From: Octopus vulgaris
Lineage: Eukaryota
Direction of reading: 5' to 3'
DNA: 64,000 nucleotides
NCBI GenBank assembly: GCA_951406725.2
Contig: OX597815.1
Span: forward strand, 53,940,001 to 54,004,000
Shown here piece after piece: positions 15,340 to 64,000 of this stretch. The notes beneath the pieces were generated by a model that was given only the letters and a program-made list of their open reading frames with translations, was not told the DNA's origin and ran no database searches. The first letter of the stretch is position 1. The number at the start of each line of letters is the position of its first letter. The translations under genes were made by a program, and so were the position numbers.

Positions 15340-16156
15340 ATCATAATTGTTCGACCGTGGTCGAGACAATGGAATTTACTATGTTACGCCAGACTTCACG
15401 GCCCATAGCATTACGGAGGTCCTGTTGCTGAATGCATGTATCCCTGGAGATTACATCAGGGTAGGAGAGTGTGCGCCTCTTCTACCTTTCACAAGAGATG
15501 ATACAAGTGGTAATTTCCTATATATTTGTACTTTGGTTGGATGACGCTTCCACGAGAGATTTTGAGCTCTCATAAGGAGGCGAGTGTAAGTTCCATCCAA
15601 CCGCCTCTCAAGTTTCTTTGATAACGATCCATATAGTAGAATTGGTTCGACTGTGGCTTTGAAGATTTTAAGTTTGAAATCTCTACTTAGATTTGAGGAC
15701 TAGATGTTATGCATATCATTAGAAGCTGACCAGGCCATACGCTTTCTAGTTAGAAAATCTTTTTCAGATGAGGATATGTATGACCCAACATATTTGTAAT
15801 CAGAAACCATATTTAAGAGCGTATTGTTGAGAGTATGGATGATGAAATCACTGTTGGACAAGCATTTGTTTACATATACAGTCTTGGACTCATTGAGGTA
15901 AAGACCTACATAATTTGAGGCTTGTTCAAGCGATTGTAAAAGAGACTGGGCATTGGAGAGAGAATCACTGATAAGAGCGATGCCGTCAGCAATGTCAGTG
16001 TCTATTAAGTGTTCAGCTGGGTGTCTGGAACTTCTTCTAGGTTTTATTTCAATGCCCTTACCAGAAATGGTATCAACTGACATGCGTAGCACATAATCAA
16101 CGACAACGATGAAGAGAAATGGGGCGAGTGTGTCTCCCTGCAGCATTCCAGCTTTG
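15340..16156 (-). mobile_element. 5'-truncated RTE-like LINE (RT C-terminal part and 3' end)
   Basis: ORF 15700-16146: LQGDTLAPFLFIVVVDYVLR, ADGIAL (ADDIAL-like), GLYLNESKT, YKYVGS; similarity continues past a stop. Confidence 0.85.
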
Positions 16157-16343
16157 ATTGAGGAAGATGATATTTCCCCTATACTCTATAAAAAAACTGC
16201 ATGAAGAATATATGTATAAGCTTTACCTCTTTATATTAGCTGGTCAACAATGTTTCCTCCATGCATTTTACAAGTGTTTATTTACACGTTTCTTAAACAT
16301 CTGCATGTTTTACAACTCATCTAGAGACACGCTACTTAAGTAC

Positions 16344-24450: not shown

Positions 24451-24555
24451 TTGATAGAAATTGCAAGATAACAAAAGAATGAAAGAGACCTCGATATTAT
24501 GTAAATAGAGGAATTTATCTGTAAATATAATATGTGACAATTATTCGGTAGTCAT

Positions 24556-24616
24556 GATAAAACTCCGAGTTTCGAATGTCGGGGCGGAAGCCCACACCAG
24601 CATCTCTTCAGTTATC
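24556..24616 (-). ncRNA. Type I hammerhead ribozyme fold
   Basis: Minus strand: stem I GAUAA/UUAUC; core CUGAAGA; imperfect stem II with inner GGGC-UUCC-GCCC; GAAA; stem III ACUC-G-GAGU; GUU cleavage triplet. Confidence 0.7.
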
Positions 24617-25152
24617 GAGCCATCGAAAAAGATAATATGAAAATGACCGTTAAAACAAAGGGAAATTACTGTGTAAATGACCGTTATTAAGACAAAAGAG
24701 CTTTTAGAATGATCGCAAAGTAAGGGGAGGGAGTAAAGTTAAGGGAGTAAAAATGTTCATAATAATCGCGTAAGCGCGCATGTCCATACATACACATGCG
24801 CGCCCGCACAACCACGTACATGCGCCTATATGTAAATACTCATCCACCCTCACTTGAAACACACACATGATCACCCATACATTCGCCAAAAACTATATAC
24901 ATACCCGCATACACGCTCGCACACACACACAGACACGCGCACAGAAAAGATTCATACACACGTCTATATACGCACAGGCACAAGAGAAAACAGTGTTATA
25001 CGCAAAATACAGAAAAATGTGTAAAAGAAGTGTAAAAAAACAAGCAATAAGAGTAAAACACGTCGATCGATATACGCACATATTCGCATGCATGCACACA
25101 CACGTCTATATACGCATTTACCCGCACACACGTACTCATCCACACGCGCACA

Positions 25153-29964: not shown

Positions 29965-31204
29965 CGAGGGACGTTCAATAAGTAATGCCCCTGACCCACT
30001 TGCAATTGTTTTATCTAGCTGAAAGTTTGCATGTGCAATTATTCATATCTCTACAGATTAAGTGGCAAATTACAGCTTTGAACTAATTGTGGTGTCTGAT
30101 TTACAGGTGTTTGAACTGAGTCAAGTGTGAAATGGAGCCTGTTGAGTGTCGAGCAGTGATCCGGTTTTTGTATTTGAAAGGATGCACACGACGGGAGACT
30201 TTTGATGAAATGAAAGTAACTCATGGTGATGATGCCCCATCATATGGCCTAGTAAATCACTGGCATCGTGAATTCAAACATGGTCGGAAACAACACCCAG
30301 ATCTGGTCGTCCCACCTCTGCCATTGATGAGGCATCTGTCTGTCAAGTTGAGGCTGCCATTTTGGAAGATCGACGCATAACTATTCGCCAAATAGCTCAT
30401 TAGTACCGGGTCTGTGAAAACTATCATTCATAACCATTTCCAGGTTGCTCACACCTTTCCAGAAGCAAGAATGCGTCGAGTGCTCGAGGATGAATTTGGA
30501 GATGTGCCAAGAAGATGAGTCAAAATTTTTCAAAAGACTGTCTACACAGGATGAAACCTGCGTCCATCACTATGATCCAGAGAGCAAAGCCCAGTCAATG
30601 AAGTGGAAGCACCGTGACTCACCTCCTCCAAAGAAGGCAAGGGTGCAGCCCTCCGCTGGCAAGGTCATGCTCACAGTCTTCTGAGACCAGGACGGAGTAG
30701 TGATGACAGATTTCCTGGCAAAGGGTACCACATTTACAGGAGCCTATTATGCTTCACTTTTGAGGAAATTAAGAGAAGCTATCAAAATCAAGAGGCGGGG
30801 CAAGATCAGCAAAGGCTTCCTCTACCTGCAGGACAACGCTCCGGTCCACAACTCGCGTGTCGCCAGATCAGAAGCACAGGCGTGCGGCTATGAACTCCTC
30901 CCCCATACCCCCTACTCTCCTGACCTTGCACCCTCTGATTTTCACCTCTTCCCAGCCATGAAGTTGTTTTTGAAAGGAAAGCGTTTCCCAGATGATGCAG
31001 CCTTGATTTCTGAAGTCACGTCGTGGTTGGAGGACCAAGCTGGGGTCTTCTACAAAAACGGTCTTCAGAGCTGCATCAAACGATGGGAGAAATGCATAAC
31101 TCTGGGTGGTTCCTATGTAGAAAAAGATTAATAACTGTGCCAAGTTTCGTTTCTCTACTGCAATGGGAAGTGGGTCAGGGGCATTACACATTGAACGCCC
31201 CTCG
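29965..31204 (+). mobile_element. Full-length mariner (DD34D) transposon, 1240 bp, TA TSD, irritans-like termini
   Basis: TA|cgagggacgttcaataagtaatgcccctgacccactt ... aagtgggtcaggggcattacacattgaacgcccctcg|TA. Confidence 0.95.
30132..31131 (+). pseudogene. Mariner transposase pseudogene (frameshifts, internal deletion, stop at 30682-30684)
   Basis: MEPVECRAVIRFL (HTH), TQDETCVHHYD, AGKVMLTVF, LQDNAPVH, YSPDLAPSDFHLF; 34 residues between the 2nd and 3rd catalytic Asp. Confidence 0.93.
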
Positions 31205-32141
31205 TATGTTGTAGTTAAACATTTAAAATCAATCCAACCTAGTCGTCAATTCTAAATGAGTGGCTTTGTATCTGAGAACCGGCATCAAGAAACAATGAGT
31301 GGTACTTCAGGCAGATTCAGCCTTATAAAAACAAAACATGATTTCACTTTAACTAATATTGTTGAATATTCTTTTCGTTTAATTGCAACTCAAATGAGTA
31401 TGAAGCCACGTCTGCCATTGTCAGAAATCAATATTTAAAAACTTGGCTGATCTGTAAATTTGGCAGAAATGTTAGGATGCCAGGATTAGTATTTTGGTCT
31501 TATTCCTTTGTACTCAAAGTACAAATTCTGCAGTCTTTGACTTTATAATTAAGTAACAGTAATAATACACTGCAAATATATAGTCGATTATCTTTCCTCT
31601 ACTGGAGAAATTGTCCTTGTCCTAAATCTAAACAAATCAATATTTTGCAGGTGGGGAAGAAGCACATCGGATAAGCAGAACAGTTCACAAAGTGAGCTAA
31701 TCAATGGTCATATTCGATCAGCTGTTGTTGGTTTGTTACTATTTTTACTTTGGTAATAGCACAAGAGAAATATAGACAAAGGCAAATTAGTTTCTCTAAC
31801 GCAATAAATTTCTTAAATAAATCAAAAAGGCAATAATTATTTTTTTTAATAAAAGAATACAAAATGTATTTTGTTTTGAATGTGGGAAATATAATGTATG
31901 GTGTATTTCAATTATCAGTAGCTTAGTTAGCATGTTTCTTTCCCATAAAGTCCATAAATTACAACAAACTATTAATTTACTAAGATCAATTTAATCGAAT
32001 CGAAAAAAGAATGCCTCCCTTGCCCTCGAGTTCGGCAATAACTATACATCATTTACAGGAAGGCCAACACAGCATATGTCATGCTATAAATAAATGAACA
32101 AATAACTACACTTATATTTACAAGCACATTCATACATACAT

Positions 32142-33538
32142 CCGCACTTGCCCTTACATCTCCAACACCACCCTCCTCACCAGCACCCATCATCGACCCT
32201 ATCGCATCATCGACTCTTTCACCTGCACCTCCAGCAACATCATCTATTGCATCTCCTGCTCTCTCTGCCATTCCCTGTACATCGGACAAACGGGACGCCG
32301 CTTGGCTGACCGGTTCGCGGAACACCTCCGAGACATCCGCCTCAACAATGACACCCCAGTCTCACGCCATTTCCGCTCCAACGGTCACTCCTTGCAACAC
32401 CTGTCTGTGTTTGGATTGTCCTTGCACAGAGGCCATTCGGACTCCCGTTTGCGCCGTGAACAGGGATTAATCTTCTCTCTTCGCTCTTTTACGCCTTTTG
32501 GGCTCAACTCTCCTCTCCTTTTCATCTAACATCCTCCCCGACTCCTACTTCTCTTCACTCCTACATCTTTTCACCCCTACTCTCTTTCCCTCTATTCCCT
32601 TACTCTCTTTCTCTCTTCTCTCTCTCTGCTCCCTCACTCTCCTTCTCTCCTCTCTCTCCCCTCCCTCCTCCTTCTTCCCACCCAGCTCTCCTCTCTTTCC
32701 CAGACTCCTACTTCTCTTCACTGCTACTTCCCTTCATTCCAACTCTCTTTCCCTCTTACTCTCTTTCTCTCTTCTCTCTTACTCTCTTTCTCTCTTTCTC
32801 TCCCCTCCTTCCCTCTTACTCTCTTCTTCTCTTCTCTCTTTCTCTCTTCTCTCTTTCTCTCTTTTCTCCTCCTCTCTCTCCTCACATACTCACCTTCCCC
32901 TCCCCCCAAAAACCCACCCATCACTACATATCCCTACTCCACCTTCCCTATCCTTCCCATCCCCCATCCTATCCCACACCTCTCCCCCACATACCCCACC
33001 TCTACCCCCACCCTCTGCCTACCCACAAACCCCAACTCTACCCCAACCCCCAGCCAAACCCACACCCCACCCGTGCTTTCCCCACTCTCACCTCCCCCAC
33101 CTCCCAACAACATCACACCACGCTACATCATACAATATTACACATCACATCACAACACACCACCCACACACCCATCCCCACACCTTCACACCTACACATA
33201 CATACACGCACACGTGCAGACCACCAGCCCTCTTTCACACGCACATACATGCTCTCTTATACACACACGCACCTTTGTGTTGGGCGTCATCTTTACCTTG
33301 TTATCTCCCCTACTTTCCTTCCTGCGTTTGACCCTTCTGTCCGGCACTAGTCGCCATGATAGATCGTTAGCCACTACACACATTTTTTTTCTCTCCTTGT
33401 TTTTTTCTATGTCCCTTTCTGTAGAAGAGCGTAGGCTAGAAACGTAAAATACTTTTTTCTGTTCCTAAGCGTTATACTAATACATCTGTTTGTTTTGTAC
33501 ACCACCAGTCTTCGTCTTTTGTTTTTTTCGTAAACTCT

Positions 33539-57627: not shown

Positions 57628-59912
57628 GGTGCAAGCTTGGCTGTGTGGTAAGAACCTTGCTTTCGGTTGAACAGTGAGGACGTGAGCTTTGAGATCCGTC
57701 CTAAAAAGAAAAAAACACAAAAACAGAGAAGGTTGTCGAGGTAGGTGATTTTGTTTGTTGTGAGCTGGGCATAATTTATTGCGCGTGAATTATTTTTTCA
57801 GTAAATTGTGCTCAGCTCTGGAACAATTTCGCCTGCTCTCGGCGGCTGCTGTTTTTGCATATCGAGAATTTATTGAATTAATTTTTGGTGGGGCGTATCC
57901 TCGTCCGAACAGAACCTGTTGCTGTTGCAGGTACCGTTGGCTGTAGCCAGCACTGTGTTTGAATTGTTGGATTAATTTACAAAAAGATTTATGCCTAGGA
58001 CCCTATCCACATTAGGCCGGGATTACCTGTTGGCCAGGAGATTGGATTTTCGCCGTGTGAACTGTTTTTATTTTTTCCGTTTATCCTTCCTGATTTTGTC
58101 TTTCGTTTTGAACTATTAATTAATTTTTGGACTTACTTTGTTTTATTTATTTATTTTTTTGTGTACCTTTTTTACATTCTCTTTGAACTTTGAACTTTTT
58201 TTTGGAACTTTTAAGACTTTCTTTTTGGCACATGGCAAAAACAAACGGTGCCGCTGTTTTGGAGTGGAAGGTGGTCTCACCCAAACAGTGGATTAAAGAT
58301 CTTGAGAAGAGGACGGTGGTACTACGGACCTATTCTAGGTCATGTGATGCCCAAATTTGCAACGGTCTGGTTGCTGTTTGGTACCCCCGAGGAAGCTGGC
58401 AGATATGCCAGCGAGCCCCTTGAGGGAGAAGAAATTTTGTTCCTCCCCACTTATTGTGGGAGGAAGATAAGAAGAGCCTCGGTGTGCGGGCTGCCCACGG
58501 GCACGGATGCGGGATGGATCGAGAAGACCATCCGGCGAGGCCTGGGGGATAGCGGGCCCAGGCTATTGAGTGTGAAGATTTCTCTCGCGGTCGACTGGGA
58601 GGGGTCAAAGGCAACTTTAACCTCGTGGACCCCGTGGACCCGGTGGCCGTAGGAGACATGATGTTTCCGGACTTCCTAAAAATGGCCGGGGACAGGTATC
58701 CAGTGATACTTGAGGGACGCCCCCCCCACAAGTGTCACCTGTGCCTGGAGCCTGGCCATATAAAAAGGAACTACCAGGGGGCCGTGGTGGGGTCCTGGAG
58801 CATGAGAAAGAGAAGGTACCCGCCGCCCCCTCATTGGAGGGGAGACGGTGGAAGTCGTGGAGGAAGTTGCCTCCACGAAAAGAAAAAGAAAGGTGAGCAA
58901 CAATGGTTGCTCACCAAAGAATGTTTAAGCGGCGGAGGAGGGTAGCGACCCCCGCGTCTGTCGACGCAGCTCCCTGCTCCCGCAGCCTCAAAAAGAAAGA
59001 GGAAAAGCGGAGCAGAGGACGGTCGGCGGATGTTCCTGGCCACCGACGGAGCCGCAGGTGGGATGTGTGCCACCTGCAGATAGGGCTCCGTCAGTGGGAA
59101 GTGTGCCACTGACGGAGCAGTGTGTGGTCCCTTCCTGTGAAGAGGAGGTGTTTGTCCTCCTTTACCACGAGGGAGGGACGGTGAGTAAATTTTTGGACGG
59201 CTTGGGTGACCGAAAACGTGTGTATTCGGTCCGCTCGAGTAGTCCGATATGGCCTCTGCAGGTGGCTGCGGAGGTAGTAACTGAAAAAATTTTGTCAAAG
59301 GTCACAGCGACCTTTGACAAGGAAGAATTTGCTTTCCTCTTTGCAGGCCCCGATTTGTCGATGCAGAGTTGGGGGACCTGACAAAGAGAATTGTTGTAAG
59401 AAACTTTGTATTCGAGGGTTTGTCGGTCGGTGGGCGCCGACATCCCTCTCATCCGTATCATTTTGTTTCATTTCATCTCATCTTGTTCATGTCAAGCCCA
59501 CAAGCTTCTCTTTGTAAGGCCTATATGGCCAATTTAATGAAATAAAGAAGCTTGCTTCCCAGCCACATGGTTCCGCGTTCAGTTCCAAGGTGTGGCACTA
59601 TTGGCAAGTGCCTTCTACTACAGCCGCGGGCCGTGCAAAGCCTTGTGAGTGGATTTGGTAGATGGAAACTGAAAGAAACCCATCGTGTATAAATGTATAT
59701 ATCTATATGTGTTTGCGTATGTGTTTGTCCGCCACCATCGCTTGACAACCATTGTTGCTGTATTTACGTCTCTCTAACTTAGTGGTTCGGCAAAAGAGAT
59801 CGATATAATATGTACCAGGCTTACAAAAATAGTCCAGGTGTCGATTTGTTCGACTAGAGACGTTGCTCCAGCATGGCCACTGTCAAAATGACTGAAACAA
59901 GTAAAAGAAAAG
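57628..59912 (+). mobile_element. SINE family A copy split by a 1.9-kb insertion (head 57628-57662, body 59545-59912)
   Basis: ggtgcaagcttggctgtgtggtaagaaccttgctt ... aagaagcttgcttcccagccacatggttcc...ccttgtgagtggatttggtaga...tgactgaaacaagtaaaag. Confidence 0.88.
57663..59544 (+). mobile_element. Non-autonomous, ORF1-only L1/Tx1-like non-LTR retroelement
   Basis: 13-bp TSD aagaa(c/g)cttgctt; frameshifted ORF 58232-59381 with EGRPPHKCHLCLEPGHIKRN zinc knuckle; ends in aataaa; no EN or RT motifs found. Confidence 0.75.
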
Positions 59913-60081
59913 AATGTATGACGAAAGGACTCTGGCCGAAATAAGATTAAGATTTATGTAGAAAATAAATAACGCTGGAGCAAAGTAACACCAAATATAT
60001 AGTGCGTGTATTTTTATTGGCTAAACTGGCAATATATATATATATATATACGCGAGAATGAAGCAACAAGAATGGATAGGT

Positions 60082-60172
60082 TTTTAGTACAATCGTTTCA
60101 TACAAGGACAGGTTTTATTAAAAGTTGCAAAAATTACAGCATATAAACGTGTCCCGTACTCATCAGCTAAAA
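60082..60172 (-). ncRNA. Type I hammerhead ribozyme (mirror copy in left arm)
   Basis: Exact reverse complement of 60731-60821. Confidence 0.82.
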
Positions 60173-60730
60173 TACATGTGAGTTCTCTAGACATCCTAGT
60201 GGTTGAGGCTATACTCATGAAGTAATGTAGATAATTAAGTAACATAAACAGATTTCAAAAGTTCATTAAAGTTCTTTAAAGATGATGTACAGTCTTATCA
60301 CAGAATTTTAAAAAGTCTTAATAGCATCACAGAGAAGGTGACCTAATCCATAGTGCACATATGAATTTCCAGAGATATGATGAGGGATTACATACTCACA
60401 GAAGACAAATTTATCCATTGTTAATTACAACGAGGTGGGTTTCAATTCAAGCAGGAATTGAAACCCACCTCGTTGTAATTAACAATGGATAAATTTGTCT
60501 TCTGTGAGTATGTAATCCCTCATCATATCTCTGGAAATTCATATGTGCACTATGGATTAGGTCACCTTCTCTGTGATGCTATTAAGACTTTTTAAAATTC
60601 TGTGATAAGACTGTACATCATCTTTAAAGAACTTTAATGAACTTTTGAAATCTGTTTATGTTACTTAATTATCTACATTACTTCATGAGTATAGCCTCAA
60701 CCACTAGGATGTCTAGAGAACTCACCTGTA

Positions 60731-60821
60731 TTTTAGCTGATGAGTACGGGACACGTTTATATGCTGTAATTTTTGCAACTTTTAATAAAACCTGTCCTTG
60801 TATGAAACGATTGTACTAAAA
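60731..60821 (+). ncRNA. Type I hammerhead ribozyme
   Basis: Stem I UUUUAG/CUAAAA; CUGAUGA; long stem II GUAC-GGGACA...UGUCCU-U-GUAU; GAAA; stem III ACGAUUGU; GUA site. Confidence 0.82.
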
Positions 60822-60963
60822 ACCTATCCATTCTTGTTGCTTCATTCTCGCTTATAATCACCCCACATTACTGTATTGTTAAATCAGTATAGTTTTTTTT
60901 GGTGCATCTAAGTTAGGTACCATATTCAAGTAAATTCATTTAACTTAACTTGAATCTTTATTG

Positions 60964-61021
<58 letters not shown>

Positions 61022-61025
<4 letters not shown>

Positions 61026-61509
61026 ATAGAAATATTAAAATTACTAAGTCTCTCTAAAGGAGATTACGGCAGCGTTACTGGATATTAATAGTTATCGCCA
61101 TACTAATATGGCAGTCTAGATATAAGATTAAAGCTGTCGCTGATTAGCTCCGAGAGGCCATCGCCTCTAGCTAGCTATATGACACACGAACCTGCGTCCA
61201 TTACAACCTTCGAACAGGGGAGGTCAGCCGCTTCACCTTGCTAGTCAGACATCTGCAGACATGTTTCAGGGTTGTTGCCTTTTATCAATGCAGCGTAGTC
61301 AAACCCGCAGGTGTCGCTACTGACTGTCTGTTCGAAGATTTTATTTACCTAGTTACAGTGGAATACATCCACTTGTTTTCAATAATAGAAATATTAAAAT
61401 TACTAAGTCTCTCTAAAGGAGATTACGGCAGCGATGGCCTCTTGGAGCTAATCAGCGACAGCTTTAGACTTATATTTAGACTGCCATATTAGTATGGCGA
61501 TAACTATTA

Positions 61510-61512
<3 letters not shown>
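61022..61512 (-). mobile_element. Short PLE pLTR-like element with direct and inverted internal repeats, between (TA)n tracts
   Basis: Direct repeat ~61022-61074 / 61381-61433; inverted repeat ~61083-61164 / 61431-61512; internal hammerhead. Confidence 0.8.
61253..61293 (-). ncRNA. Minimal type I hammerhead with U3-A8 core variant
   Basis: Minus strand CUGCA-UUGAUAA-AAGG CAACAA CCCU-GAAA-CAUG-UC-UGCAG; palindromic stem III ACAUGU; GUC site. Confidence 0.7.
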
Positions 61513-61568
<56 letters not shown>

Positions 61569-61596
61569 CATATGTATATATATATATATGTATGTA

Positions 61597-61665
<69 letters not shown>

Positions 61666-61697
61666 TTTATTTTAAGCAGCAGAAAATTCAACAAAAT

Positions 61698-61735
61698 CTG
61701 TTACTCTGAGTTTCTCGTTGCCGTTCATCAGACAG
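61698..61735 (-). ncRNA. Minimal type I hammerhead at the 3' end of the terminal PLE
   Basis: Minus strand CUGU-CUGAUGA-ACG GCAA CGA-GAAA-CUC A GAG-UA-ACAG; the stem II closing pair is an A.A mismatch. Confidence 0.72.
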
Positions 61736-62800
61736 TTTTTGCTAGAATGGAACTGATATATCAATTCAATCTATACTCTTACAAACGCTACACCTTTAAA
61801 AAGAAATGGACTTGTTTGATTGGCCCTTTAGAAAAAACGGTCAATCTTCGAGCGATAAACAAAAAGGTCAAAAATATATGTATATATATATAAAAAACTT
61901 ATAAAAATTATAAAATCCGAGGAAAAAACCTACTGACGTTAATGAAGACAGTGCAAATTAATGCATAGAAATTAAACCTGTTATAAATACTGCAATACAT
62001 ATTTATATTAAAATCTACATATATATATCAACATACACAAAAGGATGCGCGTAAACGCCATACATACATATACAGACGTATGAATATAAATCTAAATATA
62101 CACATAAAAGCATGTGTACATATATTCACGCAAACCGTCTCGCACGCAAGCTAAAATTCATCTATGTAGCAATTCTCATATACTGAGCAAGGAGGGGGAA
62201 CGAAAGAAAGGGAGAGAGAAAAAAGGAACGAAGGAGGGGTGGGGAAAAAAACGAAATAAGAAAAAAATTATGTATACAAGCAGTGTAACGGTGTTATTGG
62301 CATCTATAGAGACCAGTATACATACACAAGTTTGAATGGATACATATACATACCGTCGTGTATATGTGTGCTTAAGCACAAACATACTTTCACTTACACA
62401 TACACAGATACGCATGCTTACAAATACATATGCTTTGCTATACACATACTTATATAAACATTCTAATTTTGACAACATTGCTTTTTTTAAAAAAACATTG
62501 CTTTTAAAAATGGGTGCATTAATAAAAATATATACGAAAGACATATAAAATAAAATATAACATCCTATTTTGGGTCATTTATAAATAATCAAGGTAATAT
62601 AAATAATCAAGGTAATCCTATGCAATACAATAACATGAAAACAAAGTTTGTAGGTTTTTCCTAATATATATGTAGAAACATAAGACTTTGCTATACGGAT
62701 TAAGATCCGCATAGCTTGGAAACAAAAACAAAATCAAAATCCATCGTAGCGCTCAAGAGTCAAAATCAAAATCAAAAATCAAAAATACAAAATATATACT

Positions 62801-64000
62801 CTATCCATATGGTATATTTATATTCGACATTTTAAATTTAGCCGCGTGCCTACATAAGTTCATTAGCTCACTTCTTTGATTCAAAGAATTATTGTCTTTG
62901 AATAAGATGTACATTTTTTCTAATAGACAAAGTCTGCACTTGAAATTATTTTTGTAAGCTCCATGCCTGTATGGTGCCGCCCTGTCCAGAATGCTCCATG
63001 TCACGTTGAAAGGTGGGGCCTCCTTTTCTTTTAGTTCCCAGACATATTTTGCTAGGCTGGTTTTCTTCCTATTCTCTGGGTATTTAAATGAATTTTTATG
63101 AGAATAAAATCTTGTTTTAAATGAATTTTCTGAAGCCCCTGTGTATGTCTTGTATTCCGATGAGCCTTCCACTTGCACCTTGGCTCTATAAACTACTCCT
63201 TTCCCTAGACATTTCCCTTCTAACGGACAGGAGCTTTCGTTTTTGAAATTACATTTCTTAATGGGCTCGGCACCATGTCTAATCTCAATTAGATTCCTAT
63301 TATGTTGGCTAATGTAAGAGGCGAAATTTCTGCAACAAGAATAGCTAACCTTCAGGGTTCTTCTATTAAATATTCTGTAGAATTTATGACCCTGCTTAAA
63401 ATGCTTAGAGACTAATCTCAAAAATTCCTTACCTATATTAGTCTTTACGGCCAAATTGAAAGCCGGGTTGAACCACAAAACTTTCCTGGTCCTAGTTCTT
63501 CGTGCAGCATTATTATCAGCATTAAGCTGGTTGAACTGGATCTTCTCAGAGAATCCACTATTCTTTAATGCGCTATCGTAATAAGGTGCAGCATTATGGA
63601 ATGCTGCCTCGTCAGAAGAAATTGAAGATATTATTCTACCTACATTGCTGACTAAGTTCCTAAGGATAACTGGTGGATGGTTCGAATCTTTGCTAATATA
63701 CGATAGCTTTTCATTGGGCTTACGGAAAGGTTTAAATCTATCCGATCTTACATTAAAATTTACGTCTAAAAAATCTACACTATTCAGGTTAGCATCTATC
63801 GTAACCCGTAAGCCCATCCTTTGAAAGAAAGCTATAAGGTCCTTCCTAAGTCTATCTGATTCATGGCCGTTTAGATTATGCGTGGCTATAAGGCCGTCAT
63901 CCCTATATAAACCTGCATCTATAAATGGGAATTCTATTTTTAGATTATGGAGAATAAAGGCTCCTATGAGCATACATAATTCAGCCCCGTCGTGTGCCCC
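62801..64000 (-). CDS. Penelope-like element RT + C-terminal GIY-YIG endonuclease (Hydra-clade-like), open to the window edge
   Basis: 400 uninterrupted codons: GAHDGAELCMLIG, GLYRDDGL, VDFLDV, WFNPAF, KVSYSC, CNFKNESSCPLEGKCL, VVYRA..YTG..FKTRFYSH, CRLCLLEK, LNQRSEL..CRH. Confidence 0.93.
   Translation of the reverse strand, partial: GAHDGAELCMLIGAFILHNLKIEFPFIDAGLYRDDGLIATHNLNGHESDRLRKDLIAFFQRMGLRVTIDANLNSVDFLDVNFNVRSDRFKPFRKPNEKLSYISKDSNHPPVILRNLVSNVGRIISSISSDEAAFHNAAPYYDSALKNSGFSEKIQFNQLNADNNAARRTRTRKVLWFNPAFNLAVKTNIGKEFLRLVSKHFKQGHKFYRIFNRRTLKVSYSCCRNFASYISQHNRNLIEIRHGAEPIKKCNFKNESSCPLEGKCLGKGVVYRAKVQVEGSSEYKTYTGASENSFKTRFYSHKNSFKYPENRKKTSLAKYVWELKEKEAPPFNVTWSILDRAAPYRHGAYKNNFKCRLCLLEKMYILFKDNNSLNQRSELMNLCRHAAKFKMSNINIPYG

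Follow-up and report, generated by a model that had tools for sequence, protein, structure and literature searches.

A near-perfect palindrome in Octopus vulgaris from a young retroelement assigned by motif to the Hydra clade of Penelope-like elements, and its probable origin by twin priming on one RNA

In published descriptions of Penelope-like elements (PLEs), standard features include inverted copies truncated at the 5' end and a tail of 30-40 bp on one side only (PMC8557442, PMC3846280). Schistosoma PLEs carry pairs of hammerheads on opposite strands ~100-700 bp apart, and it has been described that single motifs of dimer-type PLE hammerheads did not cleave (PMC4209133). Members of the Hydra clade are characterised by an RWK motif, the change of DKG to DKT, CxCx5C, CxxC and CxH motifs, the lack of CCHH, a (TA)n target and a hammerhead (PMC8557442). 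The protein of an anole PLE cuts and extends both strands, with two internal RNA start sites bounding the tail; it is predicted to be a dimer with uncleaved RNA as its main substrate, and in vitro its start site was no different between strands (PMC11167929). Self-priming on an antisense template has been proposed for Penelope elements of Adineta (PMC3846280), and the origin of PLE inverted copies and tails is named as an open question in PMC8557442.

The window, which is the whole stretch of 64,000 nucleotides analysed from Octopus vulgaris, contains an inverted repeat for which the initial annotation had given 397-bp arms with one mismatch, no indels and TA flanks. This was confirmed from the sequence: the arms (60052-60448 and 60455-60851) are complementary over 397 bp each, differ at a single position (60177/60726) and lack indels. 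An inverted repeat of 397 bp at 99.7% is far beyond chance. The right arm does run on, as described, for a further 115 nt (60852-60966) to the next TA tract. A 6-nt spacer had also been reported; six nucleotides do separate the arms, but these letters are element sequence, the 5' end of a right arm that spans 60449-60966. Judged by sequence comparison, the feature is the last 518 nt of an element joined head to head with an inverted copy missing the last 115 nt. Its parts are the following:

60032..60050, no strand: left (TA)n target, a 19-nt AT run up to 60050
60051..60448, minus strand: inverted arm, the element's 3' region from start site 2 to the 5' truncation point, including the extra junction letter at 60051
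60082..60172, minus strand: type I hammerhead motif of the inverted arm
60449..60966, plus strand: direct arm, the element's final 518 nt (3' UTR and pLTR), ending at start site 1
60449..60454, plus strand: apparent spacer, the first 6 nt of the direct arm, in a blunt join to the inverted arm with zero microhomology
60731..60821, plus strand: type I hammerhead motif of the direct arm, with the cut predicted after A60815
60807..60814, plus strand: self-complementary helix III stretch (dimer-type ribozyme)
60852..60966, plus strand: 115-nt PLE tail, from start site 2 (60850/60851) to start site 1 (60966)
60967..61022, no strand: right (TA)28 target, common to a neighbouring insertion of another family

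A search of the 2.8-Gb genome with 60455-60966 returned 1,758 first-look candidates, the 40 of these that were scored being 99-100% identical over the entire query, and an exact 25-nt pattern from the 3' half of the hammerhead had 990 matches. These matches extend upstream into more element sequence and are 5'-truncated at differing points, with RT and C-terminal GIY-YIG frames found on the upstream extension of 11 loci. The parent PLE with an ORF that had been anticipated was thereby found directly: an intact 954-aa RT/GIY-YIG frame (P0053) lies on the minus strand at L102:1889-4750, a locus on contig C2, with YRDD followed by VIY...YLG, R, E and N. The parent protein is 39% identical to P0001 over 482 aa in an alignment across RT and EN, the EN block also matching, and a query with the RT part gave 52 homologues, the best of them 35-40% identical. 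The closest named protein relatives are Octopus proteins. Since a Pfam scan of two partial frames and a PDB search with the full frame gave zero matches, the RT/EN identification rests on motifs and homologues. Pieces of two Octopus sinensis proteins with public names of kinase-like and ankyrin type (P0020 and P0012) are 69-86% identical to the parent RT; on sequence similarity these names look like mis-annotations of related Hydra elements.

P0053 possesses the RWK and DKT motifs of the Hydra clade (IRWKTY, ADKTG) as well as its linker and EN motifs, CKCRIKSKC (CxCx5C), CQLC (CxxC) and CVH (CxH), and no CCHH was seen in its EN by inspection. The 3' end runs into a TA-rich run at 30 of 30 loci examined, and the hammerhead motif is found in both the 5' and the 3' pLTR of L035 and L102/L103. 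The general but not diagnostic size of less than 3 kb is exceeded, with 4,646 bp (L035) and 4,678 bp (L102) from hammerhead to hammerhead. The parent unit thus measures 4.65-4.68 kb and includes two Asn-rich inserts and a 3' UTR of ~1.75 kb. In full-length tandem copies the start codon lies 54 nt beyond the element 3' end, and the 115-nt tail sequence is the leader ending 54 nt ahead of this ATG. By its motifs, and with reference sequences compared by eye, the parent is a young Hydra-clade PLE family. The initial reading of a young, non-coding, PLE-derived, inverted and truncated pair in (TA)n is hence supported; a coding role of the arms was rejected, as they hold no long frame. One insertion (L102 and L103, G000:C2:37617000-37628300) is an 11-kb head-to-head structure with each arm longer than one unit and four hammerheads, the intact 954-aa frame lying in the inverted arm and a frameshifted one in the direct arm.

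The palindrome is no rare object: a divergent hammerhead pair is the commonest state of the family (24 of 41 loci on contig C1). The 65 hammerhead matches on C1 consist of 24 divergent pairs and 17 singles, and no convergent or tandem close pairs were found there, all 24 close pairs being divergent; if C1 is typical, the genome total would be, by rough extrapolation, about 350 divergent pairs. An inverted arm is present in 21 of the 30 best-match loci, all 21 ending at site 2, the outer end seen in the window. Two insertions on C31 (L013 and L014), 1.3 Mb apart, have the same flanks and differing junction sequence and are either a segmental duplicate or a retained haplotype; they were counted once in later statistics. 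Opposite-strand hammerheads, inverted pLTRs and a tail on one side have all been published for PLEs, and so the palindrome is an ordinary object and the hairpin a usual by-product of PLEs; the value lies in the family statistics. A MITE or foldback DNA transposon was rejected as the source, given arms from tens of bases to more than 4 kb, fixed 3' ends, random 5' ends and solo arms. Retrozymes are direct tandem hammerhead repeats with no ORF-bearing parent of the same sequence; this identity was also rejected, as none of the 24 close pairs on C1 is tandem and the arms represent the 3' end of an element with an ORF.

The family possesses two fixed 3' ends, observed directly and 115 nt apart: site 1 at 60966 and site 2 at 60850/60851. 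In read-through RNA each is followed directly on its 3' side by a UAUA-like stretch to which a TA primer could anneal. The pattern of the site-2 end occurs in 320 rows genome-wide, of which the first 100 represent 93 sites after removal of 7 double listings, and that of site 1 in 729 rows, many listed twice. A hand count of these 93 first-listed junctions found an extra CG-type junction like that of the window in 60, a CGAG start in 16, template throughout in 12 and other sequence in 5. The C at 60051 of the window is likewise part of the insertion junction and is the same extra letter as in the 60; such letters are either one untemplated C or a 2-nt slip-back.

Pairing of the two ends was assessed on C1 and on C2 to 202 Mb, where the lists for both sites are complete. 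The unequal pairing is seen directly there: for 37 of 49 site-2 ends a site-1 end lies opposite at a distance of no more than 12 kb, and 39 of 81 site-1 matches are paired. No pair of two site-2 ends was found in this region, and the only two matches for a pair of site-1 ends are both internal pLTR-ORF junctions of one tandem locus. The twelve unmatched site-2 ends comprise two pairs missed by the pattern (L067, L115), seven clear solo copies with TA on both sides and three irregular cases (L045, L111, L117). Site 1 also occurs alone between TA flanks (for example L007, L012, L017, L026 and L031). Since each occurs alone flanked by TA, sites 1 and 2 are each a priming site in their own right.

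Forty-three paired insertions (20 from the best-match set and 23 from the site-2 set) were used for comparison of the arms, with homopolymers and a pyrimidine tract masked; in four composite loci the arm ends were corrected by hand. The arms differ at 41 of 21,116 sites, where ~229 differences would be expected for random family copies. Common template variants were directly apparent: comparison of the arms at 24 shared polymorphic columns gave 173 agreements, against 114 expected, and 2 differences. Private variants in 59 insertions were present in both arms in 26 cases and in one arm in 28. Coincident 5' ends were also observed directly. Of the 43 pairs, 12 have ends at most 10 nt apart (mean of 20,000 permutations 0.84, maximum 6), as do 6 of the 26 pairs that the site-2 end had led to (permutation mean 0.5, maximum 5). 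In 28 of 43 pairs the 5' ends lie more than 30 nt apart, the direct arm being the longer by more than 30 nt in 22 and the inverted arm in 6, by up to ~1.5 kb; this difference in arm length is biased because 20 of the 43 pairs were chosen as best matches to the direct arm. A lockstep dimer, with equal arm lengths and 5' ends 115 nt apart, was rejected, as none of the six pairs in which the inverted arm is longer shows it.

With five composite junctions excluded, 28 of 38 junctions between arms were resolved, and these consist of 6 with at least 2 nt of microhomology, 4 blunt or with 1 nt, 5 with short inserts and 13 with longer inserts, a class of inserts that adjacent polymorphisms may inflate. 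The junction in the window is blunt; elsewhere, 7 of the 13 longer inserts match nearby sequence over at least 8 nt. Near-perfect palindromes have 31 inter-arm mismatches in 7,258 sites (one locus contributing 10 of the 31) and spaced pairs 10 in 13,858. L107, L111 and L120 are loop-less palindromes, and L111 possesses a 42-nt mirrored piece at the end of its site-2 arm. In L107 (G000:C1:224763900-224769600), with arms of ~2.6 kb, the 10 mismatches between the arms are confined to the direct arm and are mostly changes to A or T. Possible traces of ADAR were also sought: A>G makes up 8 of 26 both-arm variants and 1 of 28 one-arm variants (Fisher p 0.01), but T>C is at 4 of 26, and retained ancestral states would give the same picture.

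The head-to-head, 5'-truncated pair probably results from twin target-primed reverse transcription of one uncleaved element RNA. The element's GIY-YIG nuclease would cut both strands of the TA tract, after which the two DNA ends would prime at different places, the first at site 1 and its partner 115 nt further upstream at site 2, the TA primer pairing in each case with the UAUA-like RNA stretch just 3' of the site. Both cDNAs would then run until a stop, often at a common place such as the broken 5' end of the RNA, and host end-joining would link their 3' ends bluntly, through short microhomology or with a templated insert. The sequence between sites 1 and 2 would in this way end up on one side only, as the tail. 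The initial annotation had proposed a fold-back insertion; fold-back of one strand is the less favoured origin, both outer ends being fixed priming sites and either arm being at times the longer. Twin target-priming is favoured over the published self-priming because of the unequal pairing of fixed sites, the common variants, the coincident 5' ends and the fact that either arm may be the longer one. The anole study saw no difference in site between strands, which speaks against a strict pairing of site 1 with site 2. The excess of mismatches in the palindromes is not predicted by twin priming and might mean a second, error-prone route or hairpin sequencing error.

A rather unlikely alternative is self-priming or snap-back, whereby one cDNA (or antisense RNA) folds back at its end and is copied along itself into a mirror arm. 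It would account for arm identity and coincident 5' ends, for the templated inserts and small palindromes at junctions, perhaps for the extra palindrome mismatches, and the 42-nt mirror of L111 fits such synthesis. However, the inverted arm exceeds the direct one in 6 of 43 pairs, a result that snap-back of the tail-bearing strand cannot produce; snap-back of the tail-less strand cannot provide a tail, and the loop-less palindromes misfit an intramolecular fold. Furthermore, because the outer end of the inverted arm matches solo site-2 insertions both in position and in its extra letters, it is a start and not a stop. It also seems rather improbable that two separate RNAs from one master locus prime the two ends, with the likeness of the arms owed to a single active master per germ cell or to later gene conversion between neighbouring inverted arms. 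Such an origin could explain arm identity, and fits both the common variants and the pairs whose arms end more than 30 nt apart, but gives no reason why 5' ends coincide so often or why same-site pairs are missing from C1 and most of C2.

Long perfect palindromes can arise as artefacts, and four DNA-type public runs contain only short contigs, none of them across the window stretch, with zero depth over the TA run. We nevertheless regard an assembly or library fold-back artefact as extremely improbable, because the mirror halts at site 2 of the family, shows the extra letter of the family's junctions and omits the tail and flank. The flanks also differ on each side, there is one mismatch between the arms, and the same anatomy occurs with kilobase spacers, beyond any fold-back artefact.

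Each arm had initially been credited with a complete type I hammerhead. Motifs are indeed present at 60731-60821 (plus) and 60082-60172 (minus), possessing the CUGANGA, GAAA and NUH core with helices I-III in type I order; in the direct arm, helix I has 6 bp, CUGAUGA occupies 60737-60743 and GAAA 60804-60807. The term complete is overstated, however: helix III consists of just 2 bp enclosing a loop that is complementary to itself, a G-U wobble occupies position 10.1-11.1, helix II is long and there is no Rfam match. Scoring with hammerhead models did not bear the claim out: for 58000-63000, Rfam gave 14 matches at E<=1 and no hammerhead among them, for which the long helix II may be responsible. 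Matches to microRNA families at the hairpin centre were rejected, being below gathering score and reflecting perfect pairing.

Folding predictions do not favour a stable monomer: the constrained fold has -10.5 kcal/mol against -12.5 kcal/mol for the free fold, and helix I has a probability of ~0.01 in a single arm. The double-hammerhead fold reaches -31.6 kcal/mol, compared with -21.0 for two monomers, and the co-fold minimum is -32.5. The helix III stretch (60807..60814) has no fold on its own; paired with another copy of itself it forms a duplex of 8 bp at -5.8 kcal/mol. Of 81 arms, 76 retain an intact core, and in four of the five that vary (L105, L119) helix III becomes a perfect palindrome, a shift from -5.8 to -10.0 kcal/mol. 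By these predicted energies the hammerhead is of the dimer-dependent type, and the intact core and dimer fold support a role in the parent element. Genomic copies begin no more often at the hammerhead cut site (8) than at two control positions (9 and 18), and cleavage as a source of 5' ends was rejected. One tiny solo copy (L135, G000:C29:13081404) extends exactly from the cut site to site 2 between TA runs, which is within chance. Three long arms cross an upstream hammerhead (L035 and both arms of L102/L103).

Because the motifs point outwards, transcription through the hairpin from either side would yield the antisense copy before the ribozyme. The plus-strand read-through RNA is predicted to fold with every one of the 91 ribozyme nucleotides paired to antisense, within a hairpin of about -723 kcal/mol. 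The initial annotation had offered either self-cleavage or dsRNA as an outcome; a motif plus its antisense on either strand is indeed present, but the choice is lopsided, as the antisense comes first and a partner is needed anyway. On these models the hammerheads here would be passengers, since the pLTR motif needs a tandem partner and would be sequestered in the 397-bp duplex of read-through RNA; only RNAs started within the hairpin would carry a free predicted motif. Hammerhead cleavage would also separate the start sites from the upstream ORF. Because of the missing partner and this sequestration, the DNA at this locus is most likely inert, or would give long dsRNA if transcription ran across it. 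We give very little credence to the idea that the hairpin works here as a self-cleaving RNA switch or was selected as a source of dsRNA. The intact cores, the perfect helix III palindromes among the variants and the favourable dimer fold would speak for it, but the copy is ~99% identical to hundreds of others, so that core intactness reflects youth, and the antisense copy, made first on either strand, pairs with the whole ribozyme in the predicted fold. In addition, metazoan PLE hammerheads had none or low in vitro activity (PMC4209133) or were protein-dependent (PMC11167929) in the published assays. Contigs of the family's 3' region occur in four public runs guessed to be of RNA.

Other repeats were also identified in the window. 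A second TA-targeting family occupies 61022-61513 in the same TA tract, with a 359-bp tandem unit whose sense is on the minus strand; it has inverted arms without the outer 60 nt and the same one-sided tail anatomy, gave 2,828 first-look candidates, and showed no hammerhead motif by motif scan. A type I hammerhead-like motif (CUGAAGA, GAAA) at 24541-24625 on the minus strand is probably from a different PLE family. The frame at 32098-32529, with YIGQT and CxxCxxC, resembles the end of a GIY-YIG endonuclease and is presumably another PLE fragment. We take 15700-16185 (minus) to resemble a LINE RT, 30685-31131 (plus) a mariner-type transposase and 58553-59381 (plus) the zinc knuckle of a LINE ORF1. 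No host gene was evident in the ORF list of the window.

Among described systems, the Hydra clade is close to the parent element: it includes Hydra-1_Obim, and the protein motifs, the hammerhead near the 3' end and the (TA)n target are common to both (PMC8557442). That element, the sole octopus Hydra element in the supplement of PMC8557442, has another protein and another hammerhead in a by-eye comparison; it measures 2,507 bp with no pLTR listed, in a clade generally below 3 kb, whereas the unit here has 4.65-4.68 kb and a tail of 115 nt in place of the 30-40 bp given there. The window motifs resemble the metazoan PLE hammerheads of PMC4209133 in being type I and in having a short helix III, a palindromic loop and a predicted dimer dependence, and the distance of 559 bp between them falls within the range of the Schistosoma pairs. 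They differ in a longer, branched helix II and a G-U at its base. Adineta vaga Penelope elements share the head-to-head inverted pLTRs, junction palindromes, optional tail and Asn-rich ORF inserts; self-priming on an antisense template is the account given for them, whereas the octopus counts favour two cDNAs from sense RNA (PMC3846280). Poseidon PAc of Anolis carolinensis has, like the octopus family, two internal RT starts bounding a tail, an AT-rich target, cutting and extension of both strands and insertion for which hammerhead cleavage is unneeded (PMC11167929). It belongs to another PLE clade, its start sites lie in the ORF and not in the leader, and the main text of PMC11167929 gives no coupling of site to insertion end, single-template test or account of inverted arms.

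We would put it at about an even chance that PLEs integrate by obligately asymmetric twin priming, in which a dimeric RT-endonuclease would copy the same uncleaved RNA twice from two fixed sites, often with a slipped telomerase-like 2-nt repeat (CG) at site 2. If this is true, one step explains the one-sided tail, head-to-head copies and perfect palindromes across PLE clades, and PLEs are steady makers of long genomic hairpins. If the model of one RNA and two sites holds, the route is distinct from LINE target priming and PLE initiation is tied closer to telomerase; the octopus family would then seed its genome with long palindromes, from which dsRNA or fragile sites could follow. The family suits tests of this: its young copies number in the hundreds and are nearly identical, one 954-aa frame is intact, the target is simple and the position of both start sites is known to the base.

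During twin priming by LINE-1, both target ends prime on one RNA and microhomology joins the cDNA ends. The second primer of LINE-1 is placed at a variable internal site, and the inverted part consists of upstream, non-overlapping sequence. In the octopus family, by comparison, the position of the second site does not vary, and a palindrome results from the nearly complete overlap of the arms.
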